This document shows, one piece after another, positions 1-55,862 of a stretch of DNA of 64,000 nt. The stretch covers positions 7,444 to 71,443 of the forward strand of contig JAQBRL010000020.1 in the NCBI GenBank assembly GCA_028286525.1, read 5' to 3'. The position numbers and the translations under genes were made by a program. The notes below the pieces were generated by a model that was not told the DNA's origin, ran no database searches, and worked only from the letters and a program-made list of their open reading frames with translations. The stretch's first letter is position 1; each line of letters starts with the position of its first letter. The DNA comes from Parcubacteria group bacterium (GTDB lineage: Bacteria > Patescibacteriota > Minisyncoccia > Phycocordibacterales > Phycocordibacteraceae).

Positions 1-2835
1 GCCCAAGAAAAATGGGAGAAGCTCGACCTGTATGCGACCGATCTCACGGACGATTCGAAGGAGAAGTACTATCTCCTCTTCGAATTCCCGTATCCTTCCG
101 GCGACCTGCATATCGGGCACTGGTATGCCTTCGCGCTGACCGACATCTACGCACGCAAGCTGCGCATGGCCGGGAAGAATGTCCTGTTCCCGATGGGCTT
201 CGACGCCTTCGGCCTGCCCGCCGAGAACGCTGCTATCAAGAATGGCGTGGACCCTAAGAAATGGACGTACGAGAACATGGAGCGCATGCGCACCCAGATG
301 CGCACGATGGGAGCCTCTATGGATTGGAGCAAAGAGGTCGTCACCTGCGATCCCGGCTACTACAAATGGACGCAGTGGCTCTTCGCGAAGCTGTTCGAGC
401 ATGGTCTCGCCGAGCGCAAGAACGCAGCGGTAAAATGGTGCCCCTTCGACAAGACGGTGCTCGCCAACGAGCAGGTGATCGATGGCCATTGCGAACGCTG
501 CGGCCACGAAGTCGAGGAAAAGAATCTCACCCAGTGGTTCCTGAAGATCACCCAATACGCCGAACGCCTCCTGAAGGATCTGGAGCCTCTTCCGTGGCGC
601 GAAGATATCAAGGATGCGCAGCGCGCGTGGATAGGCGAAAGCGAGGGCGCGAAGCTGGTCTTCATGGCGCACACGGGAGAGGAGGATGCACCGGTGCCGC
701 TCGAAGTGTTCACCACCCGCCCGGACACCGTCTTCGGCGCGACCTACCTGGTGCTCGCGCCTGAGCATCCGATGGTCGATGTCTTGATACAGGACGCGCT
801 CAATCCCGAGGCGATACGGGCCTACCAGCGAGAGACCGGTAAAAAGACCGAACGCGAGCGCAGCGAGAACAAGGAGAAGACCGGCGTCGCGCTCGAAGGC
901 ATCACCGCGACGAATCCCGCTACCAAAGAAGAGGTGCCGGTCTACCTGGCTGACTACGTCCTCGCGTCGTACGGTACGGGTGCGGTCATGGCGGTGCCGG
1001 CGCATGACGAACGCGATTTCGAATTCGCGCAGCGTTATCAGCTCCCTATCAAGGACGTCATCGAGCCGGTGTTCGTGCGCACCATCGGCACGGACGCCGT
1101 GCGTCCGGAGGAACCCATGGTAGAGCGCCAGGCGGTGGTCGCTATCGTAAAGCACTGGGGGGAGGACAAGTACCTGTGCCTTCGCTGGAAATCGAACGAC
1201 TGGACCGGCTTCGTCATCGGCGGCATCGAGGAAGGCGAAGAGCCGAGCGTCACGGGCGCCCGCGAGATAACGGAAGAGACCGGCTATAAGAACCCGCGAT
1301 TCGTGCGTGATATGGGAGTGCCCACGCATTCGCAGTTCTATCACGAGGTGAAGCGCCAGAATCGCTTCGCGCATTTCACTCCCCTGTACTACGAGCTTGC
1401 GGACGGCGAGCGCGAGGAACCTTCGGCCGAGGAGCTCGCCATTCACGATATAGAGTGGGTAGCGAAAGAGGATATGGATGCGTATCTTTCACGCGATAAT
1501 GACATCGCCTATATATGGAAGCGTTTCGTCGCTCCTGCGTTCCCATACACGGGCGACGGTATCCTCGCCAACTCGGACAGCTTCGATGGACGCAGCAATC
1601 GCGAAGCGATGACCGAGCTGATCGCGTACGCGGGCGGCGAAGCCGTCAAGCAGTACCGTCTGCGGGATTGGCTCGTCTCGCGCCAGCGCTACTGGGGCTG
1701 CCCGATACCGATCGTCTACGATCCGGAAGGGAATGCGCACCTCGTGCCGAACGACCATCTGCCTTGGCTGCTTCCGGAAGATGTGGATTTCACGCCAGGC
1801 GCCGCGGGTGTCGGTACCTCGCCGCTTTCTACTTCCCGCGAGCTCAAGGAGCGCGTCGAGCGCATCTTCGGTGCGGGTTGGACCCCGGAATACGACACTC
1901 TCGATACCTTCGTCGATTCATCGTGGTACTACCTGCGCTACGTGGACCCCGCGGACGCGCATGATTTCTCGGACCAGGGCTTGCTGAAGAAATGGATGCC
2001 GGTGGATCGCTACTCGGGCGGAAGCGAGCATACGACCATGCATCTTCTCTATGCCCGGTTCTTCAATAAAGCGCTGTACGACCTTGCGCTCGTGCCGACC
2101 TCCGAACCATTCAATGAGCGCTACAACCGCGGCGTCATCCTCGGGCCGGATGGAGCGAAGATGAGCAAATCGAAAGGCAACGTCATCAATCCCGACGAAG
2201 TCGTATCGAAATTCGGTTCGGACGCCGTACGCATGTACCTCGCCTTCATCGGTCCTTATAACGAAACCGGCAGTTATCCCTGGAATCTCGACGGGGCCTT
2301 CGCGATGCGTAAATTCCTGGACAGGGTATACACGCTGTTCGAGGGAACGGCAACGGAGAAATCGAATCCGGAGGTACTCCGTGCGCTCGCGGTAGCTATC
2401 GATAAAGTCACTGCCGATACCGACCGCTTCAAATTCAATACCGCGCTTTCGGCGCTCATGGTGCTGGTTCGGGACCTGGAGAGCCATGCGCAGCTCGCCC
2501 CGGACGCGAAGCGAACGCTCCTCGCCCTGCTTGCGCCGTTCGCGCCTCATCTGGCGGAGCATTTGTGGGAGAAGATGGGCGAGGAAGGAAGCGTGCACCA
2601 AATGGTATGGCCGGAAGCGGACCCCGCACTCCTTTCGGCCAGTGAGATCGTGATAGGAGTACAGGTGAACGGAAAAAAACGCGGCGAAGTGCGCCTGTCG
2701 CTCACTGCTTCTGAAGATGAAGCGCTCATGGAGGCCCGGAAGGTTCCAGCGATCGCGCTGCTCCTCGGAGAGACCGCTCCCGCGCGCGTCGTCTATGTCC
2801 CGGGCCGTATCCTGAACATAGTCACCCAGGGGTGA
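1..2835 (+). CDS. leuS: Leucyl-tRNA synthetase, 5' partial. Carries an internal NUDIX-box insertion of about 155 aa (see findings).
   Basis: Frame-1 translation from nt 1 reads HIGH (LHIGHWY), AVPAHDERDFEFA, YRLRDWLVSRQRYWGCPIPI and KMSKSKGN; the ORF is open at the window start. Confidence 0.95.
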   Translation, partial: AQEKWEKLDLYATDLTDDSKEKYYLLFEFPYPSGDLHIGHWYAFALTDIYARKLRMAGKNVLFPMGFDAFGLPAENAAIKNGVDPKKWTYENMERMRTQMRTMGASMDWSKEVVTCDPGYYKWTQWLFAKLFEHGLAERKNAAVKWCPFDKTVLANEQVIDGHCERCGHEVEEKNLTQWFLKITQYAERLLKDLEPLPWREDIKDAQRAWIGESEGAKLVFMAHTGEEDAPVPLEVFTTRPDTVFGATYLVLAPEHPMVDVLIQDALNPEAIRAYQRETGKKTERERSENKEKTGVALEGITATNPATKEEVPVYLADYVLASYGTGAVMAVPAHDERDFEFAQRYQLPIKDVIEPVFVRTIGTDAVRPEEPMVERQAVVAIVKHWGEDKYLCLRWKSNDWTGFVIGGIEEGEEPSVTGAREITEETGYKNPRFVRDMGVPTHSQFYHEVKRQNRFAHFTPLYYELADGEREEPSAEELAIHDIEWVAKEDMDAYLSRDNDIAYIWKRFVAPAFPYTGDGILANSDSFDGRSNREAMTELIAYAGGEAVKQYRLRDWLVSRQRYWGCPIPIVYDPEGNAHLVPNDHLPWLLPEDVDFTPGAAGVGTSPLSTSRELKERVERIFGAGWTPEYDTLDTFVDSSWYYLRYVDPADAHDFSDQGLLKKWMPVDRYSGGSEHTTMHLLYARFFNKALYDLALVPTSEPFNERYNRGVILGPDGAKMSKSKGNVINPDEVVSKFGSDAVRMYLAFIGPYNETGSYPWNLDGAFAMRKFLDRVYTLFEGTATEKSNPEVLRALAVAIDKVTADTDRFKFNTALSALMVLVRDLESHAQLAPDAKRTLLALLAPFAPHLAEHLWEKMGEEGSVHQMVWPEADPALLSASEIVIGVQVNGKKRGEVRLSLTASEDEALMEARKVPAIALLLGETAPARVVYVPGRILNIVTQG
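1219..1287 (+). other. Canonical NUDIX box (GX5EX7REUXEEXGU) encoded inside leuS
   Basis: The peptide GGIEEGEEPSVTGAREITEETGY fits G-x5-E-x7-R-E-I-x-E-E-x-G-Y exactly. Confidence 0.75.
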
Positions 2836-2884: not shown

Positions 2885-3961
2885 ATGATTATGGCGAAAA
2901 AAGCAGTATCCAAAGGCTCTACGAAGAAGGCGGTGGTCACGAAACTGTCTTTCGACGGGGCGACCCTCGTGAAGAAGCTCCTGGCCGAGGTACCGGACCG
3001 TGCCCGCGAGGTCCTGGTGTACCGGTTCGGTCTGGGCACGTCTTCCGAACGGGAGACCCTCGAGGCTATCGGCGAACGCTGGGGCATCACCCGCGAACGC
3101 GTGCGCCAGATCGAGGCGTCCGGCATCGAAGCCATTCGCCATTCGAATGCATTCCGCGCCTCCGAAGGCGCCTTCGATGAGCTGCGCAATTATATCGAAG
3201 CCCAGGGCGCAGTCGTCCCTGAAGACGTGCTTCTCTCCGGACTCGCCACCGATGAGAAGAGCCGTAATCGCATCCGCTTCCTCCTAGTCGTCGGCAGCTC
3301 CTTCTTCCGCGAACGCGAGACCGACGAGTTCTATGCCCGCTGGCACGTCGACCATCGCACCGCCGAAATGGTGCACGCCGCGCTCACGCGCCTGTACGCT
3401 ACGCTCGACGACGCCGAAGTCCTCTCCGAAGGGGAGATCGTGAACCGCTTCCTTGAGGAATTAAAGGATGTCAACGCCGCGTATCGCAACGAAGAGATAC
3501 TCAAGCGCTGGCTCTCACTCTCGAAGAACATTGCGAGCAATCCGCTGGCCGAGTGGGGCAAGGCGCATGCACCCGCCATCCGCACCAAGGGCATACGCGA
3601 CTACGCCTATCTCGTCATCAAGCAGAAGGGCGAACCGATGCACTTCTCGGAGGTCGCGAAAGCCATTACGAGCGTATTCTCGAAGAAAGCGCATGTAGCT
3701 ACGACGCACAACGAGCTCATCAAGGATTCCCGTTTCGTGCTCGTGGGCCGCGGCCTCTACGCGCTCGCCGAGTGGGGCTACCAGCCGGGCGTCGTCCGCG
3801 AAGTCATTCGCGATGTGCTCAAGAAGAAGCCGCTTACGCGCGATGAAGTCATCGACTCGGTCAAGAAGGTCCGCTACGTGAAAGACAACACCATCCTGGT
3901 GAACCTGAACGACACGCGCTATTTCAAGAAGACTAAGGACGGCAAGTACTCGCTCGTCTAG
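2885..3961 (+). CDS. Sigma-70 region-4-like HTH plus C-terminal HARE-HTH domain protein
   Basis: The N-terminal RERVRQIEASGIEAIRH resembles sigma70 region 4.2. The C-terminal FSEVAKAI...VLVGRGLYALAEWGY is HARE-HTH-like. Confidence 0.55.
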   Translation: MIMAKKAVSKGSTKKAVVTKLSFDGATLVKKLLAEVPDRAREVLVYRFGLGTSSERETLEAIGERWGITRERVRQIEASGIEAIRHSNAFRASEGAFDELRNYIEAQGAVVPEDVLLSGLATDEKSRNRIRFLLVVGSSFFRERETDEFYARWHVDHRTAEMVHAALTRLYATLDDAEVLSEGEIVNRFLEELKDVNAAYRNEEILKRWLSLSKNIASNPLAEWGKAHAPAIRTKGIRDYAYLVIKQKGEPMHFSEVAKAITSVFSKKAHVATTHNELIKDSRFVLVGRGLYALAEWGYQPGVVREVIRDVLKKKPLTRDEVIDSVKKVRYVKDNTILVNLNDTRYFKKTKDGKYSLV

Positions 3962-3995: not shown

Positions 3996-4024
3996 AAGAG
4001 CCGCGTATTCCGCGGCTCTTTTGG
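3996..4024 (+). terminator. Rho-independent terminator
   Basis: A 10-bp perfect stem (aagagccgcg/cgcggctctt) is followed by a T-run. Confidence 0.6.
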
Positions 4025-4036
4025 TATACTTCCTGC

Positions 4037-5395
4037 ATGTCTTCCGGTGGCTTCGACCTCCTTCACGCAGCGCACGATAAGGGCATCTTCATATCGGCGC
4101 AGCCGTTCATAATCTGCTTCTTGGCCGCGAACTTCGCATTCCTCACCATCGCGCCGCTGCAGACCCTGCACAATTTCGAGTTCCTCGCGCTCACGTCGCC
4201 CGTCTGGCTTCCTATCCTTCTCGGTCGTTTCGCTATCTTGCGGTGGATAAGCGCCAATCGCATGGCATTCCTCTCGAATCAGGAGTACGTCCTGCTTGAG
4301 ATACGAGTCCCGCGCGATGTGCGCAAGACCCCGCTCGCGATGGAAGCGGTATTCTCTTCCATCCACCTCTCTCCCGGAGAATCCACCTGGTGGAAGCGCG
4401 TCGTGATAGGCGCGGTACGTCCTTCCTGGTCGTTCGAGATAGTTTCGCTCGGCGGGCGCGTGCATCTCTATGTGCGCACCCGCGTTGGCTTCAGGCGAGG
4501 CCTCGAGAGCTACATATACGCGCAGTACCCCGAAGTGGAAATAGTAGAGGCGACCGACTACAGCCTCCTCATCGACCCGTCGCATGCTCCGTACGATCTC
4601 TGGGGCACGGAATATAAATTCACGGGCAAGGACGTCTATCCTATCCGCACGTACGCGGAATTCATGAAGCCGGATTCGGCGCTTCCGAAACCCGAAGAGC
4701 AGATAGACCCGCTCGCGCAGATAATCGAATTCCTCGGCTCCCTCTCCCCGAAGGAGCAATTCTGGATACAGATCATGATCCGGGTGAACAAGAACGAGAA
4801 GTATCATGGGAGAAAGACCGCTAGCGGCGATCCGTACACCATCAAGGACGAGCGGAACGACGAGGTGGAGGTCATTCGTACCAGCACCGTCCGCAAGCAG
4901 ACCCATGTGGATCCGGCGACCGGTAAGACCTATGAGACCGAAAGCTTCCCTAATCCGACGAAAGGGCAGCAGAACGCCATGGAAGTCCTCGATCGCAAGC
5001 TTTCGAAGCCGCTATTCGATGTCGGCATTAGATCCCTCTATACGGCTCCGAAAGAGGCATACCAATCGAGCGTCATCAGCCACCTCATCGGCTTGTGGAA
5101 GCCTATCGCGTCGGAGCAGGGAAACTCGCTCGCCATCGCGCGCTGGCACGCCAATTTCGATGATTGGCCATGGGAAGATCGCAAGGGTATCCATCACGCG
5201 CACGTGGCGCACGGTCTCGTGGATTCGTACCGCAGGCGCGCCTATTTCAACGAACCCTATGTCATGCCCTGGCTTATCATGAATACCGAGGAGCTCGCGA
5301 CCATATTCCATATTCCGACCTCGGGGGTCACCACGCCGAGCCTGCCGCGTATACAGTCGTCTACTAGTGAGGCGCCTTCGAATCTTCCTACATAA
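4037..5395 (+). CDS. Hypothetical membrane-anchored protein
   Basis: A long non-Arg-biased ORF with N-terminal hydrophobic helices follows the terminator. No family was recognised. Confidence 0.5.
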   Translation: MSSGGFDLLHAAHDKGIFISAQPFIICFLAANFAFLTIAPLQTLHNFEFLALTSPVWLPILLGRFAILRWISANRMAFLSNQEYVLLEIRVPRDVRKTPLAMEAVFSSIHLSPGESTWWKRVVIGAVRPSWSFEIVSLGGRVHLYVRTRVGFRRGLESYIYAQYPEVEIVEATDYSLLIDPSHAPYDLWGTEYKFTGKDVYPIRTYAEFMKPDSALPKPEEQIDPLAQIIEFLGSLSPKEQFWIQIMIRVNKNEKYHGRKTASGDPYTIKDERNDEVEVIRTSTVRKQTHVDPATGKTYETESFPNPTKGQQNAMEVLDRKLSKPLFDVGIRSLYTAPKEAYQSSVISHLIGLWKPIASEQGNSLAIARWHANFDDWPWEDRKGIHHAHVAHGLVDSYRRRAYFNEPYVMPWLIMNTEELATIFHIPTSGVTTPSLPRIQSSTSEAPSNLPT

Positions 5396-5510
5396 GCATG
5401 CCTATCGCGTCCATCTGCTTCGTTACGGGGCCCGTCCCGCTCATCCGCCGTACTATGAGTACGTCTACTTCCCGTGTCAGCCCGTGCCTCGCATCTGAAA
5501 CCCGCTAGAC

Positions 5511-6521
5511 ATGCTTATGCCAATTACCCAGTGGTTAAAAATAATCTTTTTGGTGCTCAGCATGCATCTTGCGCGTCTCAAATACTGGTACGCGGCGTTT
5601 TTCCTCATCCTCGTTCTCGCGCTGAGCATCTTCTCGTACGTTTTCCTCCTCCCTCCTGCCGGTTTCCATCCGAATACCACGCTCGCGGTCGCGCCGGGCA
5701 CAAGCGTTCGGCATGAGGCTGCGCTCCTGAAGGAGGCGCATGTGATACGCTCCACATTCGTATTCCGTGCGCTCTATCGCCTGATGCCCAGTACGCATGG
5801 CGTGCAAAGCGGTGTCTATGATTTCACGTATCCCATCGGCGAGCTTCGGCTCGCATGGGACTTAGCGCACGGCATTTCCGAAGTGCCCGAGGCTCGAATA
5901 ACATTTCCGGAAGGTACGACGGTCCGGCACATGGGCATGCAGCTCGCCAACACGCTCCCCGGAGTGAACGAACGGGAATTCCGGCAGCTTGCGCTTCCGG
6001 AGGAAGGCTACCTGTTCCCGGACACCTACTTCTTCCGGTCGGACGCTACGACGACAGAAGTGATCGCCATACTCAGATCCAATTTCGAGGACCACTTCGC
6101 AGGGCATGCGGAGCAGTTCGCCGCATTCGGGAAGCCGGAGCGGGAGGTCATCATCATGGCCTCCATTCTTGAAGGCGAAGGCAAGACACTTGAGGACAAG
6201 CGCATCATTGCGGGCATCCTCTGGCATCGCATCGCGCTCGGCATGCCGCTGCAGGTAGATGCGCCGTTCGGGTACGTGCATGGCGCAGCAGGCTATACGC
6301 CTACCGCAGCGGATCTGGCGAGCGATTCCCCGTACAATACCTACCGCACCAAAGGATTGCCGCCCACGCCCATAAACAATCCGGGCGACGTGTCGATACA
6401 GGCAGCCATCACGCCTACGAAGTCCGCGTACCTGTACTATCTGACCGGTACGGACGGGACGATGCATTACGCCAAGACATTCAGCGAGCACATCGCGAAT
6501 CAAAAGAAGTATTTAAAATGA
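5511..6521 (+). CDS. mltG: Endolytic murein transglycosylase MltG/YceG
   Basis: The N-terminal TM segment and the YLYYLTG / GLPPTPI motifs are typical of YceG. Confidence 0.85.
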   Translation: MLMPITQWLKIIFLVLSMHLARLKYWYAAFFLILVLALSIFSYVFLLPPAGFHPNTTLAVAPGTSVRHEAALLKEAHVIRSTFVFRALYRLMPSTHGVQSGVYDFTYPIGELRLAWDLAHGISEVPEARITFPEGTTVRHMGMQLANTLPGVNEREFRQLALPEEGYLFPDTYFFRSDATTTEVIAILRSNFEDHFAGHAEQFAAFGKPEREVIIMASILEGEGKTLEDKRIIAGILWHRIALGMPLQVDAPFGYVHGAAGYTPTAADLASDSPYNTYRTKGLPPTPINNPGDVSIQAAITPTKSAYLYYLTGTDGTMHYAKTFSEHIANQKKYLK

Positions 6522-7974: not shown

Positions 7975-8810
7975 TGCCAGTAGAGATAGTTAAAACCGAC
8001 GGAACCACCGAAGCGTTCGATGGCATGAAGCTCGAGTGGTCGCTCCGTCGCGCAGGCGCAACGACGCATACCGCCGAGCGCATCCGGCACACCATCGAAG
8101 CTTCCATTTCGGCCGGTGCGCCCACGCAAGAGATATACAAGCGCGCGTTCCAGATGCTTCGCCATGACGCGCGGCCTGCCGCCGCGCGCTACAGCCTGCG
8201 GCGGGCCTTATTCGAGTTCGGCCCTTCGGGCCATCCGTTCGAGAATTACGTTTCCGAACTTTTCAAGAAAGAAGGATGGTCCGTGGAATATCGCCGCGTC
8301 ATTCCCGGTAAATGCGTATCGCACGAAGTCGACGTGTACGCGACCCGCAATGGGGAATACCTTGCGGCGGAACTCAAATATCATAATGACCCCGGGTACA
8401 AGACCGACGTGAAGACAGCCCTGTACGTGAAAGCTCGCTTCGACGATATCTGGCAATGCGATCCCAAACATGATGAGCACTGTCCGGTCGATCACGGATT
8501 CCTGATAACCAATACGAAATTCACGCGCGATGCGGTGCAGTTCGCCACCTGCTCCGGTATCCAGCTCCTGGGGTGGAGCTACCCCGCAGAGGGAAGCCTC
8601 TATGACCGCATAGTCGCGACCGGTCTCTATCCGGTGACGGCGCTCACCATGCTCAAGAAGACCGAAAAGAGATTGCTTATCGACCAAGGCATCGTTACCT
8701 GCGACCAGGTACGCGAGAACCGCGACGTGCTCCGCGCGCTCAATATCGCTCCGGAACGCATCGGTACTATACTCGCCGAGGCCAACACCCTTTGTAACTC
8801 CTACGCATAA
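7974..8810 (+). CDS. ATP-cone domain fused to an Mrr/PD-(D/E)xK restriction-endonuclease-like domain
   Basis: The N-terminus is ATP-cone-like (VEIVKTDGTTEAFDGMKL...). The middle region has the HEVDVY...ELKYH catalytic signature. Confidence 0.65.
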   Translation: MPVEIVKTDGTTEAFDGMKLEWSLRRAGATTHTAERIRHTIEASISAGAPTQEIYKRAFQMLRHDARPAAARYSLRRALFEFGPSGHPFENYVSELFKKEGWSVEYRRVIPGKCVSHEVDVYATRNGEYLAAELKYHNDPGYKTDVKTALYVKARFDDIWQCDPKHDEHCPVDHGFLITNTKFTRDAVQFATCSGIQLLGWSYPAEGSLYDRIVATGLYPVTALTMLKKTEKRLLIDQGIVTCDQVRENRDVLRALNIAPERIGTILAEANTLCNSYA

Positions 8811-10275: not shown

Positions 10276-10320
10276 TGCTTCCGTTTTGATTCATATAGTA
10301 AATGCTGATATTTTAGGTAT

Positions 10321-11631
10321 ATGGCTCGCGCATCCGTAAAAAAACAACCGGCCTTCGTCGGCATCACTTTCGTCCGTGAACGGGACGGAATACGTGAGTA
10401 TAAGCTGGAGAAGAACGGCCTCACCATCCTCCTTGCTGAAAATCATGCCGTTCCGGTAGTCGGCTTCATGGTGACTTATCACGTAGGCTCCCGGAACGAA
10501 GCCATAGGCTATACGGGCGCCACGCATCTCCTTGAGCACCTTATGTTCAAGGGTTCGGAGCGATTCAATGCAGATACCGGAAAGGATACTAAGCAATTCC
10601 TCGAATCGCGCGGCGCGTATATAAACGCGACCACATGGTGGGATCGTACTAATTATTTCGAAGTGATGCCGAAACACATCCTGCCGGACGCGATAGCGCT
10701 CGAAGCGGATCGTATGAGGACCGCCCGTATCACCGAGACCGATCGCGAGAGCGAAATGCCCGTCGTACGCAATGAATTCGAACGCGATGAGAATCTTCCC
10801 ATGTCGGCACTCGACAAGCAGATCTGGGCACTTGCCTTCCAGGCGCATCCGTATCATCACAACACTATTGGATGGAAAAGCGACATCGAAGGCGTTTCGA
10901 TCGAGCGTTTGCAACAGTTCTATAACGACTTCTATTGGCCGGATAACGCTACGGTCTCGGTCGCTGGTGATTTCGATGCGGATGAGACCCTCACGCTGAT
11001 TAAGAAGGAATTCGGCCGGCATTCTCGGAATCCAAGTGAGTACCCGCGGGTCTATACCGAGGAGCCGAAGCAGGAAGGCGAACGTCGCGCGATAGTTTCC
11101 CGTGCTGGAAATAACATGGTGGGCGTCGCGCATAAGATACCGAATGCGCATCACGCGGATATGCCCGCACTCCTCGTGCTCATGGCAGTCCTCGACCAGG
11201 GAAAGACGAGTCGTCTCTACCGCGCGCTTGTCGATACCGCTCTCGCGACCGATGTCGCGGTCGCGTGCTACGAGCTCCATGACCCAGCGCTTTTCATTAC
11301 CTACGCATCACTCACGCCAAGCGCGACTCATGAGGAAGTGGAACGAACTATCGTCAAGGAATACGGAATTCTCAAGGAGAAAATGGTTTCGGCGGCCGAG
11401 CTCGCACGCGCGAAACGCCTTCTGCGCACCGAGCTCGCAAAGCGGTGGGATGGCCCGTATCAGTTCCTTTCGTCGCTTAATGAGAGCATCGCTACAGGAG
11501 ACTGGACGCATTTCCTTACCGCGGGCGAAGCGGTGATGCAGGTTACCTCGGCTGATGTGAGACGTGTAGCGAGCACCTATTTGATTTCAGACCAGGCGAC
11601 CGTCGGGCATTTCGTGAATATTGCACCATGA
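10321..11631 (+). CDS. M16 (pitrilysin) family zinc peptidase
   Basis: An HxxEH zinc motif (HLLEHLMFKG) is present. Confidence 0.85.
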   Translation: MARASVKKQPAFVGITFVRERDGIREYKLEKNGLTILLAENHAVPVVGFMVTYHVGSRNEAIGYTGATHLLEHLMFKGSERFNADTGKDTKQFLESRGAYINATTWWDRTNYFEVMPKHILPDAIALEADRMRTARITETDRESEMPVVRNEFERDENLPMSALDKQIWALAFQAHPYHHNTIGWKSDIEGVSIERLQQFYNDFYWPDNATVSVAGDFDADETLTLIKKEFGRHSRNPSEYPRVYTEEPKQEGERRAIVSRAGNNMVGVAHKIPNAHHADMPALLVLMAVLDQGKTSRLYRALVDTALATDVAVACYELHDPALFITYASLTPSATHEEVERTIVKEYGILKEKMVSAAELARAKRLLRTELAKRWDGPYQFLSSLNESIATGDWTHFLTAGEAVMQVTSADVRRVASTYLISDQATVGHFVNIAP

Positions 11632-13205: not shown

Positions 13206-13230
13206 CTATACACCGTGATATCTTCATACA

Positions 13231-15213
13231 ATGACCGTTTCAGAAGTACGCACACGTTACCTCGCCTTCTTTGCGGCGCGTGGTCACGTCATAATCCCAT
13301 CAGCACCGATAGTGCCGGGGAACGACCCTACCACGCTCTTTACCTCGTCCGGCATGCAGCCCCTTATTCCGTACCTGCTCGGTAAGGACCACCCGGAAGG
13401 GAAGCGCATCGTTAATTCCCAGATGAGCTTTCGGGCGGGCGATATCGAGGAAGTGGGCGACAATCGCCACACGACGTTCTTCGAGATGCTCGGCAATTGG
13501 TCGCTCGGCGACTATTTCAAGAAAGAGCAGCTACCCTGGTTCTTCGAGTTCATGACGAGCAAAGAAGAAGGCTTAGGACTCGATCCTACGAAACTCTTCG
13601 TCACGGTATTTGCGGGCGACCCCGATACGGGCATGGAGATGGATACCGAAGCCGTGGGCATATGGCAAGAACTCTTCAAGACCAAAGGCATCGATGCCGA
13701 ATTCGCGGATATCGGCAGCGAAGCAGCCGGCTACGAGCACGGCATTAATGGTAACGAACGCATATTCGCTTACGACGCCAAGAAGAACTGGTGGAGCCGC
13801 TCGGGCGTACCTGCCAACATGCCTGCCGGAGAGCCAGGTGGACCGGATTCCGAGGTCTTCTACGACTTCGGTCTTCCGCACGACCCAAAGTGGGGCCCGA
13901 AATGCCATCCGAACTGCGACTGCGGCCGTTTCGTCGAGATAGGGAACTCGGTCTTCATGCAGTTCATAAAGAATGCTGACGGGTCATTCTCGAATCTTCC
14001 GAAGCAGAACGTGGACTTTGGAGGCGGGCTTGAGCGTCTTGCGTTCGCTACGCTCGATAAACCTGACGTTTTTCTCATAGATGTATTTGATACAGCTCGG
14101 AACGCGATTGAATATCTATCCGGAAAAATATATGGGTCAGATGAAAAAATAACAAAGTCTTTCCGCATCATTTTGGATCACATGAGAGCATCCACCTTCA
14201 TCCTTGCTGAAGGTATAGTTCCCGCAAGCACGGAGGCTGGTTATGTCCTTAGGCGTTTGTTGCGTCGCGCAATTCGTGAGACCGATAGATTGGGAGTCAA
14301 GGACAAAGTTCTTGCATCTGTAGCTGAAGAGTTTGCTGACAAATATGCAGACCAGTATCCACGCTTGCAGGAAAATAAGCTCAAGATTTTGGATGAAATT
14401 GCAAAGGAAGAGGAGCAGTTCAGGAGAACACTCGAAACGGGTTTGAAGCAATTCGAGAAGGCAATCAGCATTAAGTCAGGCATTGTTAGCAATGCCGATC
14501 AACGCAAGGAACTTGAAGAACGAGTCTACATTAAGACTCTGGGAGCAGAAACGGTTTTCGAGTTGATGACAACCTATGGCTTCCCAGAAGAACTCATTCG
14601 AGAAGAACTAGCTTCGCACAATATCTCAGTTGATGATTGGGATATGGTCAAAAGCTTGTTCGAAAAACATCGCGAGCTTTCCCGCGCCGGAGGCGCGCAG
14701 AAATTCGCCGGAGGCCTTGCCGACCACTCCGAGCAGACCGTGCGCTACCACACGACGCATCACATCCTACTCAAAGCGCTCCAGATGGTGCTCGGGGACG
14801 AGGTCAAGCAGCGGGGAAGCAATATCACGAGCGAGCGCTTGCGCATCGACTTCTCCTCCCCCGGCAAGATGACTCCAGAGCAGAAAGAAGAGGTAGAGAG
14901 GATAGTGAACGAAATTATCTACCAGGACCTGCCGGTATCGCGCACCGTCATGCCACGGGAAGAGGCCGAGAAGCTCGGTGCCCAGATGGAATTCGGGGTG
15001 AAGTATCCCGACATGGTATCGGTGTATTCGGTCGGTCCTATCCATGCAACAGAGGAGAATCCCGATATTCCGAACGCATTCTCGCTGGAGTTCTGCGGCG
15101 GACCGCATGTGAAGAGCACAAAGGATATCCATGACGGCGGCAAGCGTTTCAAGATACAGAAAGAGGAGGCAGTCGCTGCAGGCATCCGCCGCATCAAGGC
15201 AGTGCTCGAATAA
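13231..15213 (+). CDS. alaS: Alanyl-tRNA synthetase, short form (catalytic, tRNA-recognition and editing domains; no C-Ala domain)
   Basis: Class II AlaRS N-terminal motifs are present. The editing-domain HTTHHILLKALQ and CGGPHV signatures are also present. The protein is 660 aa. Confidence 0.95.
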   Translation: MTVSEVRTRYLAFFAARGHVIIPSAPIVPGNDPTTLFTSSGMQPLIPYLLGKDHPEGKRIVNSQMSFRAGDIEEVGDNRHTTFFEMLGNWSLGDYFKKEQLPWFFEFMTSKEEGLGLDPTKLFVTVFAGDPDTGMEMDTEAVGIWQELFKTKGIDAEFADIGSEAAGYEHGINGNERIFAYDAKKNWWSRSGVPANMPAGEPGGPDSEVFYDFGLPHDPKWGPKCHPNCDCGRFVEIGNSVFMQFIKNADGSFSNLPKQNVDFGGGLERLAFATLDKPDVFLIDVFDTARNAIEYLSGKIYGSDEKITKSFRIILDHMRASTFILAEGIVPASTEAGYVLRRLLRRAIRETDRLGVKDKVLASVAEEFADKYADQYPRLQENKLKILDEIAKEEEQFRRTLETGLKQFEKAISIKSGIVSNADQRKELEERVYIKTLGAETVFELMTTYGFPEELIREELASHNISVDDWDMVKSLFEKHRELSRAGGAQKFAGGLADHSEQTVRYHTTHHILLKALQMVLGDEVKQRGSNITSERLRIDFSSPGKMTPEQKEEVERIVNEIIYQDLPVSRTVMPREEAEKLGAQMEFGVKYPDMVSVYSVGPIHATEENPDIPNAFSLEFCGGPHVKSTKDIHDGGKRFKIQKEEAVAAGIRRIKAVLE

Positions 15214-41318: not shown

Positions 41319-41386
41319 AGCGTGGGTTCGGAGCGACCCGGAACGAGAGTTCCGGGTCCTCTCTTTGCGTGCTATTTTAGACCTAT

Positions 41387-42697
41387 ATGCAGGGCCGAAT
41401 ACTGATAGGGGAGCTGGCTTCCCATGTAGGTGAGACCGTGACCATCGCTGGGTGGATAGATGTCCGCCGCGACCAGGGCAAGCTCGTATTCTTCGATTTC
41501 CGCGACCGCAGCGGCCTCGTGCAGGGTGTCATACTTCCGGGCGATGTGACCCTTATGGAGACCGCCAAAAGTACCCGTAACGAGTTCGTCGTGAGCGTAA
41601 CCGGCATCGTGAATAAGCGCCCCGAGAAGAACGTTCAAGAGGGGAAGCTGAACGGGGACATCGAACTCGAAATAAAGGGGATCGAGATACTCTCTAAGGC
41701 AGAAGAACTTCCGTTCGATAAGGACACCGACCTCAATATCGACACGCGGTTCGATTACCGCCCCTACACGCTCCGCAGCCAACGAGATAGAGACATCTTT
41801 ACGGTGCAGGCCACTATACTCGACGCGTATCGCAACTCACTCACGCGCCAAGGCCTCTTGGAATTCGTCGCGCCAGCGCTCGTGGGAGGAGACGCCGAAG
41901 GAGGGGCAGCAGTCTTTAAGGTTGGGTACTACTACGACCAGACCGCGTACCTCGCGACCTCGCCGCAGCTCTATAAGCAGATCATGGTCGGTGCATTCGA
42001 ACGCGTCTTCACCATCGCGAAGATCTTCCGTGCGGAGAAGCACGCGACCACGCGCCATCTTTCCGAGCTGACCCAGATGGACTTCGAGATGGGCTTCATA
42101 CAGGACGAATTCGACGTCATGGCAGTGCTCGAGACCGTAGTTCGCGATACCGTTACTGAAGTAGCGGACAAGCACGCAGCCGAGTTCGAACGCCTGGGCG
42201 CGGAAGTGCCCCAGCTCGGCGAGAAGTTCCCTGTACTTACGCTCGCTGAAGCCCACAAGACGCTCGGAGTCGCTCCGGAAGACGACATGACGCCCGAGCA
42301 CGAGCGCGACATATGCGCGTGGGCGCTCAAGGAGCATGGTTCTGACTTCGTATTCATCACGAAGTTCCCGACCGCTTCGCGCGCGTTCTATACCATGTCC
42401 GACAGAGAGACGCTCAGCCGCGGCTTTGACCTCCTTTTCCGTGGACTCGAGATAAACAGCGGTGCGCAGCGCATCCATGACTATGACGAGATGGTGGCTC
42501 GCATCGTCGAGCGCGGAATGGACCCTGCGAAATTCGCATTCTATCTCCAAGCATTCAAGTACGGCATGCCGCCGCACGGTGGCTGCTCAACGGGGCTTGA
42601 GCGCTTTACGGCGCGCATGCTCGAACTGGGTAACGTGAAAGAGGCGAGTGCCTTCCCGCGCGACATGAATCGTATCGATACGCTCCTCTCCCAATAG
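41387..42697 (+). CDS. aspS: Aspartyl-tRNA synthetase, short (archaeal/non-discriminating-type, 436 aa)
   Basis: Class II motifs 1-3 and an N-terminal OB fold are present, with no GAD insertion. Confidence 0.9.
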   Translation: MQGRILIGELASHVGETVTIAGWIDVRRDQGKLVFFDFRDRSGLVQGVILPGDVTLMETAKSTRNEFVVSVTGIVNKRPEKNVQEGKLNGDIELEIKGIEILSKAEELPFDKDTDLNIDTRFDYRPYTLRSQRDRDIFTVQATILDAYRNSLTRQGLLEFVAPALVGGDAEGGAAVFKVGYYYDQTAYLATSPQLYKQIMVGAFERVFTIAKIFRAEKHATTRHLSELTQMDFEMGFIQDEFDVMAVLETVVRDTVTEVADKHAAEFERLGAEVPQLGEKFPVLTLAEAHKTLGVAPEDDMTPEHERDICAWALKEHGSDFVFITKFPTASRAFYTMSDRETLSRGFDLLFRGLEINSGAQRIHDYDEMVARIVERGMDPAKFAFYLQAFKYGMPPHGGCSTGLERFTARMLELGNVKEASAFPRDMNRIDTLLSQ

Positions 42698-49098: not shown

Positions 49099-49578
49099 AT
49101 GACGCTTCCCGAAGCTGAATATTATGCAGGCCTCGCGAAGAAAGGCTGCGGCGCTGCCGTTCTTCTCTTTAATGAGAGAGGCGAACTGCTTATCGTTGAC
49201 CCGAACTACAAACCCGATTGGGGACTTCCGGGCGGTGCGGTCGATGCTGATGAATCGCCGCGACTCGGAGCCCTTCGCGAAGTGCGGGAGGAGCTTGGCA
49301 TCTCCTTATCAACGCTTACGCTCATAGGGGTCGATTACATTCCGAGCAACCCTCCGCGTACCGAGGCGCTCTACCTTACCTTCGATGGAGGTGTCCTGAA
49401 CGGAAAGGAAATCGAATCCATCATTCTGCAGAAAGACGAACTGGACGAGTATCGCTTCGTGGATATCGCTGAAGCCATACAGCTTCTCAATCCACGGCAA
49501 GGAGGAAGATTGCCAGCATGTCTCGAAGCGCGAGCAAAAGGAACGGTCGCCTATACCGAGAATGGTATGCTTACGTAA
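49099..49578 (+). CDS. NUDIX hydrolase
   Basis: A NUDIX box is present (GLPGGAVDADESPRLGALREVREELGI). Confidence 0.85.
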   Translation: MTLPEAEYYAGLAKKGCGAAVLLFNERGELLIVDPNYKPDWGLPGGAVDADESPRLGALREVREELGISLSTLTLIGVDYIPSNPPRTEALYLTFDGGVLNGKEIESIILQKDELDEYRFVDIAEAIQLLNPRQGGRLPACLEARAKGTVAYTENGMLT

Positions 49579-49585
49579 ATAGGCT

Positions 49586-50737
49586 ATGAAAATCGTCTTT
49601 ACCGGTGGCGGCACGGGCGGCCATTTCTATCCGATCATCGCGATCGCGGAAGCTATGCGCGAACTCACGAACGAGCGCCGCTTGCTTGCGCCACAGATGT
49701 ATTTCATCGCTCCTAAGCCCTTCGACCCGGAAGCGCTATTCGAGAACCAGATACAATTCATTGCCTGCCCAGCCGGGAAGATGCGTCGATACAAGAGCCT
49801 TAAGAATTTTACCGACCTCTTTATTACCTTCGGCGGAGTAGTGAGCGCGGTCATTACGCTCTTCCGCATCTATCCGGACGTCGTGGTTTCCAAAGGCGGC
49901 TACACGAGCGTGCCGGTGACCATCGCGGCGAACCTTCTCCATATACCGGTCATCATCCATGAGTCAGATGCGCATCCGGGCCGGGCCAACCTGCTCGCCG
50001 CCAAGCACGCCGCGCGCATCGCCGTCGCGTTCGATTCCGCACGCACGTTCTTTCCTGCAAAAGCCCAAGACAAGATCGCTCGCATCGGCATCCCTATCCG
50101 CAAGGGCGTCGCGTTCGTGGACGCCGAGGGCGCCATACAAGAGCTGGGCCTCGAGCGCACCATCCCGACCATCCTCATCCTCGGCGGCTCCTCCGGCTCG
50201 GCGCACATCAATGAGACGGTGCTGTCGACGCTTCCGGACTTGGTATCCTTCGCGAACGTCATTCACCAGACCGGCAAGGACCTGTTCAAGGAAACGGAAG
50301 GGACGAGCTCCGTTATCCTGCAGGGCAATGAGCACAAGAATCGGTACCATGTCTTCCCATATCTCAACTCGCTCTCGTTGCGCCGCGCCGCAGGCGCGGC
50401 GACGCTCGTCATCTCGCGCGCCGGCTCCACCGCTATTTCCGAGATCTCTCTTTGGAAGAAGCCCGCCATCCTCATTCCTATCCCGGAAGTGGTCAGCCAT
50501 GACCAGCGCACCAACGCCTACGCATACGCCCACACGGGTGCTGCGGTGGTGCTCGAAGAAGGGAACATGACGCCGCACGTGCTCGCGAGCGAAGCGCGCC
50601 GCATCGCGCTGGATCCGGCGGTCGCGAGCGCCATGGCGCTCAAAGGGGCTGATTTCGCGAATCCCGAAGCCGCGCGCATGATCGCGGACGAAGCCCTTTC
50701 TATCGCCCTTGCGCACGAACCGGCGGAAATGGCCTGA
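49586..50737 (+). CDS. murG: UDP-GlcNAc:lipid I N-acetylglucosaminyltransferase MurG
   Basis: GGTGGH at the N-terminus, a GT28 fold and SRAGSTAISE are present. Confidence 0.92.
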   Translation: MKIVFTGGGTGGHFYPIIAIAEAMRELTNERRLLAPQMYFIAPKPFDPEALFENQIQFIACPAGKMRRYKSLKNFTDLFITFGGVVSAVITLFRIYPDVVVSKGGYTSVPVTIAANLLHIPVIIHESDAHPGRANLLAAKHAARIAVAFDSARTFFPAKAQDKIARIGIPIRKGVAFVDAEGAIQELGLERTIPTILILGGSSGSAHINETVLSTLPDLVSFANVIHQTGKDLFKETEGTSSVILQGNEHKNRYHVFPYLNSLSLRRAAGAATLVISRAGSTAISEISLWKKPAILIPIPEVVSHDQRTNAYAYAHTGAAVVLEEGNMTPHVLASEARRIALDPAVASAMALKGADFANPEAARMIADEALSIALAHEPAEMA

Positions 50738-50947
50738 AATGGCCAAATACTTTGTTGCGGGTCCCGCCTCATTTCTCCGTCGTACTATGAGTACGCCTAC
50801 GAAATGCGACTGCCCGCGTCGCGTCTTTGACGCATTGCAGGCACATTTCGAAGAGCGAAGTCGTCCTGCGAAAAATCGACTAAGACTTGGCCAAGCGGCC
50901 CGAAGCGGTCGATTTTTCGTAGGACGACGAAGTGATAAAGTAGCTAT
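50738..50947 (+). other. Structured 210-nt intergenic leader upstream of gltX, containing the shared palindrome motif and a 20-bp stem hairpin
   Basis: The palindrome CGTACTATGAGTACG lies at 50781..50795. The 20-bp stem pairs 50861..50880 with 50907..50926 (one G-U). CCTACGAAA/TTTCGTAGG is a competing helix. Confidence 0.45.
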
Positions 50948-52369
50948 ATGAACGTACGCACAAGGTTTGCGCCCAGCCCCACTGGCTTCATGCATGTAGG
51001 CGGCATCCGCACCGCCCTCTTCTCGTGGCTATACGCCCGCAAGCATGGGGGGCAATTCATATTGCGTATCGAGGATACCGACCAGGAGCGGGAAACGGAG
51101 GGCTCGGTAGGGCACATCATCGAATCCCTGAAGTGGCTCGGTATCGAGTACGACGAGGGTCCGGACATCGGCGGAGCGCATGACCCGTACTTCCAGTCGG
51201 CCCGCCTCGACCTGTACAAGCGCTATGCGGATCAGCTCATCGCGGCAGGGTTCGCGTACGCCGACCCGTTCACCGAAGAGGAAGTGGAAGCACTGCGCGC
51301 GCAGGCGGAAGCCGAGAAGCGTCCCTTCCTGTACCGCGAGCATCGGCCGGAGACGTTCGACGAATGGGACGGCACGCGCCCGCTGCGCTTTCGCGTACCC
51401 GAGGTCAAGCGCTACACCTGGACCGACCTCGTGCGCGGCGAGCTTACGGCGGGTGAGGAAGCGCTCGACGATTTCATACTCATCAAGACGGATGGATTCC
51501 CGACATATAACTTCGCCCATGTCGTGGACGATATAGAAATGGAGATAACCCACGTGATGCGGGGCGAGGAATTCATCTCCTCCACGCCAAAATTCCTCTC
51601 GCTCTACGAGGCGCTCGATACGGCGCCGCCTGCATTCGCTACGATGCCGGTCATCCTCGGACCCGATGGCAAAAAGAAACTTTCGAAGCGCGACGGGGCA
51701 AAAGACATCCTTGAATATCGCGATGAGGGCTATCTGCCGCAGGCCATGCGCAATTTCCTTGCGCTCGTCGGGTGGAATCCGGGTACCGAGCAGGAAGTGC
51801 TCTCGGACGATGAGCTTACTTCCGCGTTCGATATCACGCGCGTCCAGAAGAGCGGGGGAGCCTTCGACGAGCAGAAGCTGCTGTTCATCAATCGCGAATG
51901 GATGCGACGCTTATCGGATGAAGACTTCATACTCGAAGGCGAGCTTGAGGCATCCAGCACCAGCAGATTGCTCGCTGCCGTACCGCTTCTGAAGGAGCGT
52001 GCGTCCACCTTTGCGGAGGCCCGCGGAATGCTTACCAGAGAGCTCGCCTGCCTTTTCTCCACTCCGTCGCCTGAGCGCGACCCGCTCATAGAGAAAGCAC
52101 CGCCCGAAGCCACAAAAGCCCATTTGCAAGCGTTTTTAGGCCTTATAGAGGGGCTTCCGCCGCTTACGCATGCCGATATGGTCAAAGAAGCGCTTATGCC
52201 GTACGCGGATGCGATTCCGAAGGAAGCGGGCGGCCGCGGAGCGGCCCTGTGGCCGCTCCGCTATGCGCTTTCCGGAGCCGAGCGTTCGCCTGACCCCTTC
52301 ACCCTCATCCATATACTGGGCGCAAACGAATCGCTCTCGCGCATCAAGAACGCAATTGATATACTTTAG
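50948..52369 (+). CDS. gltX: Glutamyl-tRNA synthetase
   Basis: PSPTGFMHVGG (HIGH-type) and KLSKRDG (KMSKS-type) are present. Confidence 0.95.
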   Translation: MNVRTRFAPSPTGFMHVGGIRTALFSWLYARKHGGQFILRIEDTDQERETEGSVGHIIESLKWLGIEYDEGPDIGGAHDPYFQSARLDLYKRYADQLIAAGFAYADPFTEEEVEALRAQAEAEKRPFLYREHRPETFDEWDGTRPLRFRVPEVKRYTWTDLVRGELTAGEEALDDFILIKTDGFPTYNFAHVVDDIEMEITHVMRGEEFISSTPKFLSLYEALDTAPPAFATMPVILGPDGKKKLSKRDGAKDILEYRDEGYLPQAMRNFLALVGWNPGTEQEVLSDDELTSAFDITRVQKSGGAFDEQKLLFINREWMRRLSDEDFILEGELEASSTSRLLAAVPLLKERASTFAEARGMLTRELACLFSTPSPERDPLIEKAPPEATKAHLQAFLGLIEGLPPLTHADMVKEALMPYADAIPKEAGGRGAALWPLRYALSGAERSPDPFTLIHILGANESLSRIKNAIDIL

Positions 52370-54209: not shown

Positions 54210-54282
54210 GTTTTAAGCGGCACACGATCTCTTACGATCCCGTACCGAATTCCTCGCACCAAAACGTGCTAGCATCGCATAT

Positions 54283-54636
54283 ATGAAAACTAGAACTATG
54301 GTAGAGGTGGTCGGAGCACTACTTCTCATCATTCTCTTTGGCTTCGGATGGGCTCGCCAGCACTCCGCTCCACCTGCCGTGCTGCCTGCACAATCGACGA
54401 GGATCTCGGAAGACGACGCCGCACAGATCGCGCTACAGGCCTACCTTGATTCGAAAAAGAGCACCCTGTCCGCGAGCTGTATTTCTGCAGATACCGTACG
54501 TACGGCAACCGATAGCATCGATTTCAATATACGGGAAATCCATAATGCTGCCTGCGGAGGCGATCCGATGACCGCTCCGCGATTAGAGTCCTATACGGTA
54601 AATCTACAGACGGGTAAGGCAACTCTGGAGCAGTAA
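54283..54636 (+). CDS. Hypothetical signal-anchored protein
   Basis: An N-terminal TM helix is present. Confidence 0.4.
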   Translation: MKTRTMVEVVGALLLIILFGFGWARQHSAPPAVLPAQSTRISEDDAAQIALQAYLDSKKSTLSASCISADTVRTATDSIDFNIREIHNAACGGDPMTAPRLESYTVNLQTGKATLEQ

Positions 54637-54898: not shown

Positions 54899-54965
54899 AA
54901 AGATTCCAGACCGCGTACGCATTGAATTAATGCGCTCTTCATCCTCGCTTGCTAAAGTGAGGTAA

Positions 54966-55862
54966 ATGGAATTAGGCTCCGCGGTAGATCTGCGTACCCG
55001 TAAGATAGGAGCAGTACTGAACACCGCGAGCGGTAGCTGCACGAGTGAATCCGTTCAGGAGATGGAAGCCATCTTCGAAGAATTCGAATTGAGGCCGGTA
55101 CGTATGTGGTGCAGCGCCTCGAACGAGCTTCCGCAGGCATTCGCCGAAGTCGAGAAACGCGACCTCGATGTGCTGGTCGTGCTCGGCGGCGACGGTACCA
55201 TACGGAGCGCCGCGGAACTCTGCAACGAAAACGGCCCGCTTCTCGTGCCGCTTCCGGGAGGCACGATGAACGTGCTTCCTAAGGCGCTCTATGGAAACGG
55301 CTCATGGCAGGACATATTACGCGCCGTACTTTCGAATCCCCAGGTCAAGCCTGTATCGGGAGGGGAAGTCGAGGGGCACCGATTCTTCATCTCCGCCATA
55401 TGCGGGGCGCCTGCGCTGTGGGCGAAGGTGCGGGAATCGATTCGCGAGGGCGAACTCGGCGCAGCCATCGAGCACGGAAAGGCGGCTCTTGACCGCATGT
55501 TCGCGACGAAGATCCACTACCAATTCAATGAGATGCACGAAGGGGAGACCGAGGCGCTCACCATAAGCTGTCCGTTGGTCTCAAGCGCGCTTGAGGATGA
55601 TCGCGAAGTCTTCGAGGCGGCGGTCATAGATGTCAACGATGCGCCAGATGTGCTCGCCTTTGCGACTGCGGCGGCGTTCGGTGCCTGGCGCGAGACCAAG
55701 CAGGTGGCTATCGTCCGTACGAAGAGCGTGACCGTATCTTCCCGCCGGACGCTTCCTATCATCCTGGACGGCGAGACCATGGATGTCGGAAGCGAAGCCC
55801 GCATCGAATTCGTGCCGCATGCATTCAGCGCGCTCGTTCCGACCGATGAAATACTTCCTTGA
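54966..55862 (+). CDS. Lipid kinase of the diacylglycerol-kinase catalytic family (YegS/BmrU-like)
   Basis: VLGGDGT is the DAGK_cat signature. Confidence 0.8.
   Translation: MELGSAVDLRTRKIGAVLNTASGSCTSESVQEMEAIFEEFELRPVRMWCSASNELPQAFAEVEKRDLDVLVVLGGDGTIRSAAELCNENGPLLVPLPGGTMNVLPKALYGNGSWQDILRAVLSNPQVKPVSGGEVEGHRFFISAICGAPALWAKVRESIREGELGAAIEHGKAALDRMFATKIHYQFNEMHEGETEALTISCPLVSSALEDDREVFEAAVIDVNDAPDVLAFATAAAFGAWRETKQVAIVRTKSVTVSSRRTLPIILDGETMDVGSEARIEFVPHAFSALVPTDEILP

Follow-up and report, generated by a model that had tools for sequence, protein, structure and literature searches.

The window analysed here is a stretch of 64,000 nucleotides from contig JAQBRL010000020.1 of a Parcubacteria group bacterium (assembly GCA_028286525.1), and the subject of this report is a hairpin-forming element that lies in two of its intergenic gaps. 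Its Parcubacteria origin is also borne out by MltG, which has a 100% match on a 78-kb contig of a Parcubacteria metagenome assembly. The first gap lies between the gene for a DUF8128-family protein (4037-5395) and the plus-strand gene for YceG/MltG (5511-6521), and the second between murG (49586-50737) and the plus-strand gltX (50948-52369). A first-pass annotation of the window had reported a motif shared by these gaps, and the strings that it quoted are present there, CCCGCTCATCCGCCGTACTATGAGTACGTCTAC at 5436-5468 and CCCGCCTCATTTCTCCGTCGTACTATGAGTACGCCTAC at 50763-50800. The 15-mer CGTACTATGAGTACG, a 6-bp inverted repeat flanking an ATG loop, has exact matches at 5449-5463 and 50781-50795 only, two against the 0.03 expected from dinucleotide-preserving shuffles, and no further match with up to two mismatches was found within the window. 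The likeness had been put at about 35 nt with gaps, which underestimates it: the two copies align without gaps across approximately 119 positions of the covariance model described below, with 59% identity, and each is a hairpin of 124-131 nt of which the 15-mer is only the apex.

Copy 1 occupies the gap from the stop codon TAA of the DUF8128 gene (5393-5395) to the ATG of mltG, at either 5511 or 5517. Its closing stem pairs 5391-5410 with 5500-5519, such that CATAAGCATG (5391-5400), which includes the TAA, faces CATGCTTATG (5510-5519), which includes both candidate start codons. The apex of this copy carries the conserved purine loop GUAGA on its 5' side and the likewise conserved GCGGA on its 3' side. 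Copy 2 begins on the murG stop codon TGA (50735-50737). Predicted folding energies are -54.9 kcal/mol (z -4.64) for the minus strand of copy 1 compared with -35.6 (z -2.05) for its plus strand, and -53.6 kcal/mol (z -3.98) compared with -46.6 (z -2.62) for the strands of copy 2. Small open reading frames (ORFs) of 34, 36 and 80 codons are listed on copies of the element (8302-8406 of the related locus L028, and 5398-5508 and 50709-50951 of the window, respectively) and are almost certainly not genes.

The wider distribution of the element was established by two scans: one, covering a single genome for each species, used the motif and its 3' flank and returned four matches in Patescibacteria metagenome-assembled genomes (MAGs) together with unrelated ones, and the other, of metagenomes, added more. 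Copies from Patescibacteria share some 100 nt of conserved blocks, and the spacer segments between these differ in sequence yet remain complementary, as in L003 (aatgatattc ... gaatatcatt). Ten copies were aligned with MAFFT without reference to structure, and the RNAalifold consensus of this alignment was the source of the covariance model (CM) R1. In the MAFFT alignment 88.1% of the pair cells are paired, as against 27-42% when registers are slid by 1-3 columns, and 25 of the 37 pairs have changed on both sides, compared with 13.5 +/- 2.3 in shuffles. CM R1 then recovered eight more full copies outside the seed, all lacking the exact 15-mer, with scores of 45-102 bits (E ~1e-10 to 1e-26), which brings the total to 18 copies of 117-140 nt in approximately ten related Parcubacteria genomes or contigs. 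With the full set of 18 copies, pairing reaches 90.4% of cells (28-40% in the slid controls) and compensatory changes are seen at 28 of 37 pairs; as this larger alignment was fitted to the model it leans towards the structure, and the MAFFT alignment provides the independent check. The element is thus a discrete conserved unit whose pairing has been kept by compensatory changes. Its stems are P2-P5, an apical one of 5-6 bp (CGUAY/RUACG) that bears a variable loop of 3-6 nt, and a closing one whose consensus, RYAUGYCUAAAAG...CUUUUAGGCAUG, is weak. It also has two internal loops, both conserved and rich in purines: in one GAGGC faces CAACGAAG, in the other GUAGR faces RCGGA. Conservation is strongest in the unpaired purine-rich loops and the apical stem (ugCgaGGCgcggg, AG-N-CGUA ... 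UACG-N-cGgA and cgcAACgaaGcAg), and the core blocks are kept between genomes whose MltG proteins are just 50% identical.

Table 1. Copies of the element and associated features, with the state of three gene junctions among relatives. Positions are those of the window unless a locus (L number) is named.
Feature	Position	Strand	Remarks
Element copy 1, complete imperfect hairpin, 131 nt	5390..5520	-	CM R1 118.8 bits; CM match 5397-5515
Apical stem-loop of copy 1	5449..5463	-	RNA CGUACU-CAU-AGUACG; equals the palindrome of the first-pass annotation
Element copy 2, complete imperfect hairpin, 124 nt	50726..50849	-	CM R1 113.7 bits; CM match 50729-50847
Apical stem-loop of copy 2	50781..50795	-	same 15-mer; GUAGG on 5' side, ACGGA on 3' side
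Terminator-like 21-bp hairpin with A5/T5 arms, outside the element	50860..50928	+	95% complementary; -45.9 kcal/mol, z -7.39
Extended -10 box TGATAAAGT, 6 nt, gltX ATG at 50948	50933..50950 (box 50933-50941)	+	leaderless promoter arrangement
DUF8128-mltG junction, filled			window, L026, L028
DUF8128-mltG junction, remnant	L027 2521-2569		first ~35 nt kept, then mltG leader
DUF8128-mltG junction, empty			L029, L030, L034; stop-start gaps 1-11 nt
DUF8128-mltG junction, empty			L041; genes called 1 nt apart; no CM match
murG-gltX junction, filled			window copy on - strand; L043 copy on + strand, 47% identical; L043 GltX 83% identical
murG-gltX junction, empty			L044, L045, L046; GltX 80-84% identical; L046 gap 25 nt
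gltX-M23 junction, filled			L043, L045
gltX-M23 junction, empty			window, L044, L046
Larger ~230-nt repeat, contigs outside the candidate phyla radiation (CPR)	L012 ~690-900, L013 ~1020-1260, L019 ~640-830		shared 15-mer, CGGAG box, GCAACGAAG

The element has a marked strand polarity. Over the consensus pairs of the 18 copies, G-U exceeds A-C by 44 to 7 on the strand opposite to the one that the first-pass annotation had read, what is A-C on this model strand reading as G-U on its complement. Taken separately, the 13 copies that are antisense to their flanking genes give 32:4 and the five sense copies 12:3, and the polarity is therefore intrinsic to the element rather than a product of host transcription. 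The model strand folds better in 12 of the 12 copies tested on both strands. Both copies in the window are antisense to their neighbours, with the purine loops and the G-U pairs on the minus strand, and the mRNA would therefore contain the weaker complementary hairpin. The earlier suggestion of a structured RNA was in the right direction, with the qualification that the structure is selected on the opposite strand and is tied to the 3' end of the upstream gene. A link between orientation and replication was considered and rejected, given that the GC and AT skews of the loci have no consistent sign and a single contig has copies in both orientations within 7 kb.

The apex of the motif was initially described as a perfect palindrome; this holds for the 6-bp arms and not for the loop, which reads ATG on one strand and CAT on the other. 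Both ATGs do open in-frame RRT-MSTST and RRT-MSTPT, as had been stated, and it was proposed that they start a leader peptide, or that the palindrome is a transcription-factor operator common to mltG and gltX. The CAU apical loop (ATG on the other strand) is present in nine of the 18 copies, all of which had been recovered by patterns containing ATG, and in none of the nine found without such a pattern (apices such as CGUAUGCGCUAUACG, CGUAUGGGUAUACG, CGUAUUCAACAUACG and CGUACUAGUGCGUACG); hence neither the start codon nor the peptide is conserved. The ORFs that the two window ATGs open differ in length (17 and 54 codons), the orthologous copy at the mltG locus of L026, where MltG is 80% identical, has AGCGC in its loop and no ATG, and substitutions across the element track base pairing rather than codons. 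For an operator it can be said that no part of the element is better conserved than the palindromic arms (CGTAY/RTACG) and that the same palindrome marks the start of unrelated genes elsewhere, one of XRE type in L011 and L014 and one from Puia in L004-L006. However, within the family the palindrome lies away from promoters and in both orientations after stop codons, there is no common downstream gene, and the approximately 30 covarying pairs around the palindrome would be left unexplained. Both regulatory readings are consequently regarded as highly improbable.

The genes just mentioned belong to other organisms and are of separate interest. In Puia/Chitinophagales MAGs the same 20-mer starts a conserved 260-aa gene (MSTATG...; L004 6765-6784, L005 1208-1227, L006 5120-5139). 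A GTACTAAAAGTAC hairpin precedes this gene, and the whole arrangement has no connection with the Parcubacteria element. At L014 13230-13244 and L011 317-331 a 91-aa XRE-like helix-turn-helix protein, assigned by eye, starts at the ATG of the palindrome, which could be a genuine autoregulatory operator in an unrelated organism. These gene starts, together with an Olsenella coding sequence and assorted coding regions, account for the other exact-pattern matches and were rejected as family members.

The transcriptional surroundings of the two copies bear on what the element could be. Copy 2 does lie upstream of gltX in position, but to describe it in this way is misleading, given that a terminator-like hairpin and a -10 promoter intervene (Table 1). 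The hairpin, just 13 nt from copy 2, has an inner stem and T-run flagged as terminator-like, with no T-run after the full stem, and is probably the terminator of the murG operon. The palindrome of copy 2 is 138 nt upstream of the gltX -10 box, with the 21-bp hairpin between them. The hairpin and the leaderless promoter together place copy 2 in the 3' untranslated region (UTR) of murG and not in a gltX leader. For mltG, the promoter-box survey found no promoter of its own next to the site, and its start codon is 1-11 nt from the DUF8128 stop codon in relatives without the element, a spacing that therefore indicates an operon. In L002 and L024 a TGgTATACT promoter is located downstream of the element.

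The gltX promoter is one of many of its type. A TGnTAnnnT box 5-8 nt before the ATG is found at many gene starts of the window (4022-4039, 10300-10323, 13210-13233, 41365-41389, 50933-50950, 54262-54285 and 54945-54968 are examples), and of the 29 plus-strand starts with at least 30 nt of intergenic DNA ahead of them 12 have it. These starts are without a Shine-Dalgarno sequence and have no evident -35 consensus, an arrangement which implies that leaderless mRNAs are probably widespread in this genome. It is kept in six genomes at the junction between the sigma-like gene and the DUF8128 gene, beside terminators of the A-tract/hairpin/T-tract form. The database GltX of this contig is 459 aa long, compared with 473 aa, a length like that of its homologues, when read from the ATG of the leaderless promoter; the deposited start is probably 14 codons too late.

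The conserved loops and the polarity raise the possibility that the copies are members of a multi-copy structured small RNA (sRNA) family, produced from their own promoters or by 3'-UTR processing and acting in trans or within a ribonucleoprotein, in which case the purine-rich loops and the apical stem would form a protein- or RNA-binding surface. The strong conservation of the unpaired purine-rich loops, the covarying stems and the clear strand polarity are what such a family would present, as are the retention of the core blocks despite the divergence of MltG noted above and the compensatory changes by which orthologous copies differ. Nevertheless, this is unlikely. A search on the 5' side of the model strand revealed no conserved promoter: the sole match on the minus strand, CTGACA-17-CATAGT inside copy 1, lies on a variable stem, is not conserved and was rejected, and no consistent -10 box precedes the model strand in other copies. 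At copy 2 the 21-bp hairpin stands just 13 nt away on the model-strand 5' side, and the 5' ends of the sense-oriented copies are 0-9 nt from a stop codon. A U-tract does not follow the element on either strand, so that it lacks the form of an intrinsic terminator. Furthermore, the loci are gained and lost and appear in opposite orientations in the same gap of relatives, which is unusual for sRNA genes, and there is no matching Rfam family.

Relative to the upstream gene's stop codon, every one of the 18 copies starts between -9 and +9 nt, in either orientation (13 antisense and 5 sense to the flanking genes), and the gap from the element to the downstream start codon ranges from 0 to 120 nt. 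In L002 and L024 the lepA stop codon falls inside the UAAAAG box of the element. The flanking genes vary (lepA; ftsA/ftsZ; hisS; a sugar transferase and an epimerase; a GH18 gene; gltX and an M23 peptidase), the element being found after lepA, ftsA, hisS, gltX, murG, the GH18 gene and the sugar transferase gene. The lepA gene of L002 and L024 is bracketed by two copies of the same orientation (L002 1-66 and L024 2603-2720; L002 1911-2030 and L024 677-798).

Given this placement, it is conceivable that the element is a host-selected RNA hairpin acting in cis at the 3' ends of genes in either orientation, as a protector, an RNase site or a means of translational coupling. The abutment of a stop codon in every copy is consistent with this, as are the folding of both strands (the plus-strand energies given above) and the closing stem of copy 1, in which the region of the DUF8128 stop codon is paired to the start codons of mltG. 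REP and ERIC sequences have moreover been reported at gene 3' ends, co-transcribed and affecting mRNA stability (PMC3184786; PMC3733652). Against it, a generic role of this kind would not conserve loop sequences or a polarity that is independent of the mRNA, close relatives manage without the element at the same junctions, and normal A-tract/T-tract terminators are also present. Such a cis-acting role is considered quite unlikely.

Comparison of orthologous junctions indicates that the element comes and goes while the genes around it stay (Table 1). At the DUF8128-mltG junction filled, partially deleted and empty sites are all observed, and the deletion end-points of the L027 remnant are CGTTATG direct repeats, which are present in the intact L026 copy. 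At the murG-gltX junction the copies of the window and L043 lie on opposite strands and belong to different subfamilies. Copy density, which varies among related genomes, was taken from contig stretches of 42 kb and 64 kb and from 21-kb samples: five copies occur in 42 kb of one contig (L028 and L043) and two in the 64-kb window with filters off, and a CM scan of five other 21-kb samples found none.

These observations favour, by a modest measure, the reading that the element is an ERIC/REP-like dispersed palindromic element of 120-140 nt, resident in the intergenic DNA of one Parcubacteria (Paceibacteria) clade, with a function and a manner of spread that can be proposed as set out below. The first-pass annotation had itself listed a small dispersed repeat among its candidates, which points the right way, although the unit is about 125 nt and not 35 nt; taken as a whole its interpretation is partly supported. 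Rfam 15, whose families include 6S, SRP, T-box and Y RNAs, riboswitches and ribozymes, returned only a tRNA-Tyr from the window at the gathering threshold and chance-level matches in permissive local scans, and nothing on the element from nine related loci. Literature searches on four spellings of the core sequence and on CPR repeats and sRNAs found no description. In IMG/VR a degenerate apex pattern gave six pattern matches, none a family member by CM, and blastn in its distant mode against 5,426 complete E. coli genomes gave no match to the element, as was also the case for plasmids and phages. Absent from Rfam 15 and from the literature, the element looks like an undescribed relative of the known palindromic intergenic repeats.

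Among these the closest analogue is ERIC, an analogy of size, hairpin form, position, orientations and patchiness. The ERIC/IRU elements of Enterobacteriaceae are imperfect palindromes of about 127 bp classed as miniature transposable elements with inverted repeats (MITEs); their features as compared here are in part those given in PMC3184786, and they are reported to have been described by Hulton in 1991 and by Wilson and Sharp in 2006. Shared with them are a length of some 120-130 bp in which the whole unit is one imperfect hairpin, an intergenic but transcribed position at gene 3' ends or between cistrons in either orientation, and a patchy occurrence at orthologous sites with a copy number that varies widely among related genomes. 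The 18 copies are in these respects short, non-coding, whole-length imperfect palindromes that are dispersed and polymorphic in their insertion, as MITEs are, whereas their flanks do not show terminal inverted repeats (TIRs) bounded by a target-site duplication (TSD). Further differences from ERIC are the lack of sequence similarity, of a TA target duplication and of clear TIRs, the Parcubacteria host, the REP-like tagged apex and the strong strand polarity. Correia/NEMIS, RUP and other MITEs are similarly short, non-coding, dispersed, hairpin-forming, co-transcribed with their neighbours and insertion-polymorphic, but they conserve TIRs and TSDs with a looser interior, while the element conserves its interior loops and apex most and its termini least.

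The resemblance to REP sequences concerns the apex. A REP is a unit of 20-40 bp, or an inverted doublet of such units, typically present in more than 100 copies per genome and often as inverted dimers, and REP sequences and REPINs are mobilised by RAYT tyrosine transposases (Y1 HUH). No inverted dimers of the apical unit were found, the top density being the five copies in 42 kb, and no RAYT gene came to light among those proteins of the window that were scanned or among the Pfam annotations for the fetched loci. The GTAG-REP format consists of an unpaired GTAG tag, a stem of 6-13 bp and a loop of 2-3 nt, and REPs are mostly downstream of coding regions and have G-T pairs in their stems (PMC3733652). 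The apex of the element likewise consists of GUAG, one unpaired purine, a stem of 5-6 bp and a short loop, a short palindromic unit in the same sense. The tag is exact in nine of 18 copies and is GCAG, ACAG, AGAG, GGAG, GAAG or a shifted (G/A)UGAG in the others (consensus NNAG), and, in contrast to a GTAG-REP, the element has a single tagged hairpin in the centre of a far larger one. Membership of ERIC or of REP proper is not supported, because there is no sequence similarity and no TSD, the tag is exact in only half of the copies and no mobility gene was seen among the same proteins and annotations.

Other known structures were compared and set aside. Integron attC sites, such as the Vibrio cholerae repeats of about 124 bp, have core sites R'' (RYYYAAC) and R' (GTTRRRY). 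They share with the element an imperfect hairpin of similar size directly after a stop codon, a partial precedence of structure over sequence and one functional strand. They differ in that the base of the element (RYAUGYCUAAAAG/CUUUUAGGCAUG) has neither R'' nor R', in that its orientation to the ORF is variable, and in that its neighbours are housekeeping genes in conserved synteny rather than cassettes, with no integrase seen; attC identity was rejected on the absence of the core sites from the hairpin base and the 13 antisense to 5 sense orientations. Five further likenesses were also rejected: 6S RNA, for which the element is too short and has no central bubble with a long terminal stem behind it; 4.5S/signal recognition particle RNA, whose GGAA/AGCA motifs are absent and with which the shared CCCGCAACG is on the wrong arm; a mimic of the tRNA-Met anticodon loop (CUCAUAG), this loop not being conserved among copies; the sarcin-ricin loop CUCnUAGUACGA, the bases of which are paired in the apical stem; and a T-box specifier, for which both strand and architecture are wrong.

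As to how such an element may have spread, it is proposed that it was mobile without being autonomous, and that it passed through a single-stranded intermediate, of either DNA or RNA, that was specific to one strand. An intermediate of this type would account for a polarity that takes no heed of which way the host genes run, and antisense copies may predominate because a strong hairpin in the mRNA sense is more disruptive. The window copies would then be passengers in mRNA, present there as the weaker of the two complementary hairpins: copy 2 would ride in the murG 3' UTR ahead of the terminator-like hairpin, and in the putative DUF8128-mltG operon the closing stem of copy 1 would loop the insert out, so that the stop and start codons stay adjacent. 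If the element affects its neighbours at all, this would most likely be through the stability or processing of 3'-end or intercistronic RNA, or through translational coupling, and not as an operator or a leader peptide.

Several observations weigh against the dispersed-repeat reading. Copies from the same genome share just 41-65% identity and bear no sign of recent transposition. The orthologous copies of the window and L028 are 78% identical although their MltG proteins are just 66% identical, and they differ by at least two compensatory pair changes, which speaks for a host function, with selection acting in place, and against a purely selfish element. Ordinary terminators in the window genome can begin 6 nt after a stop codon, and the stop adjacency is therefore in part a matter of genome compactness. 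In addition, inspection of the flanks of the 18 copies found no target-site duplication or target motif and only a weak consensus for terminal inverted repeats, and no transposase, reverse transcriptase or integrase was identified among those window proteins that were scanned or in the precomputed Pfam lists for the protein-anchored loci. A further suggestion, which remains tentative and is judged unlikely, is that the element represents a new class of functional structured nucleic acid and no passive repeat, either an RNA (a component of a ribonucleoprotein, or ribozyme-like in fold) whose conserved purine-rich loops would act at sites of translation termination or the cis-acting substrate of a new strand-specific insertion mechanism (HUH-type or RNA-mediated) that would target the site immediately after stop codons in streamlined CPR genomes.

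The apical module also occurs outside the family. The metagenome contigs L012, L013 and L019, which are not of CPR origin, carry the apical 15-mer within NGAG-N-CGUACUCAUAGUACG-N-CGGAG, plus GCAACGAAG, as part of the larger repeat listed in Table 1, whose outer stem (ACCAAGUUGC...GCAACUUGGU) is conserved and which contains one more hairpin, rich in GC. This repeat matches no Rfam family, and CM R1 scores 27.8 bits on L012. From its sequence distribution, the apical module may be older or more widespread than the Parcubacteria element, which hints that it is recognised by something widespread. One of the three contigs encodes an apparent cytochrome bd subunit CydA, identified from its N-terminal sequence only.

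The genes preceding copy 1 have features of their own. The order of the genes for a protein with Sigma70 region 4 and HARE-HTH domains (2885-3961), DUF8128 (4037-5395) and MltG (5511-6521) is kept in all relatives examined. The leucyl-tRNA synthetase of the window (166-2835) has an inserted NUDIX domain at residues 322-439; the same fusion is found in L030 (4606-7443), L034 (4572-7415) and L041 (4611-7478) and is absent from the 808-aa leucyl-tRNA synthetase of L028. A separate NUDIX protein is encoded at 49099-49578 of the window.

The element is unannotated at present, and as such it yields spurious small ORF calls, the 34-codon gene on the L028 copy and the short ORF of the first-pass annotation among them, and misleads the regulatory interpretation of neighbouring genes; the covariance model can be used for annotating it across CPR genomes. 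Its strand polarity, its position behind stop codons and its REP-like tagged apex offer concrete leads to whatever enzyme or partner recognises it. The Patescibacteria (CPR) have genomes of about 1 Mb that are tightly streamlined, so that a conserved, structured element of 125 nt copied into the few intergenic gaps they possess calls for an explanation: it is either put to use by the cell, or selfish and able to persist in the face of strong pressure towards deletion.

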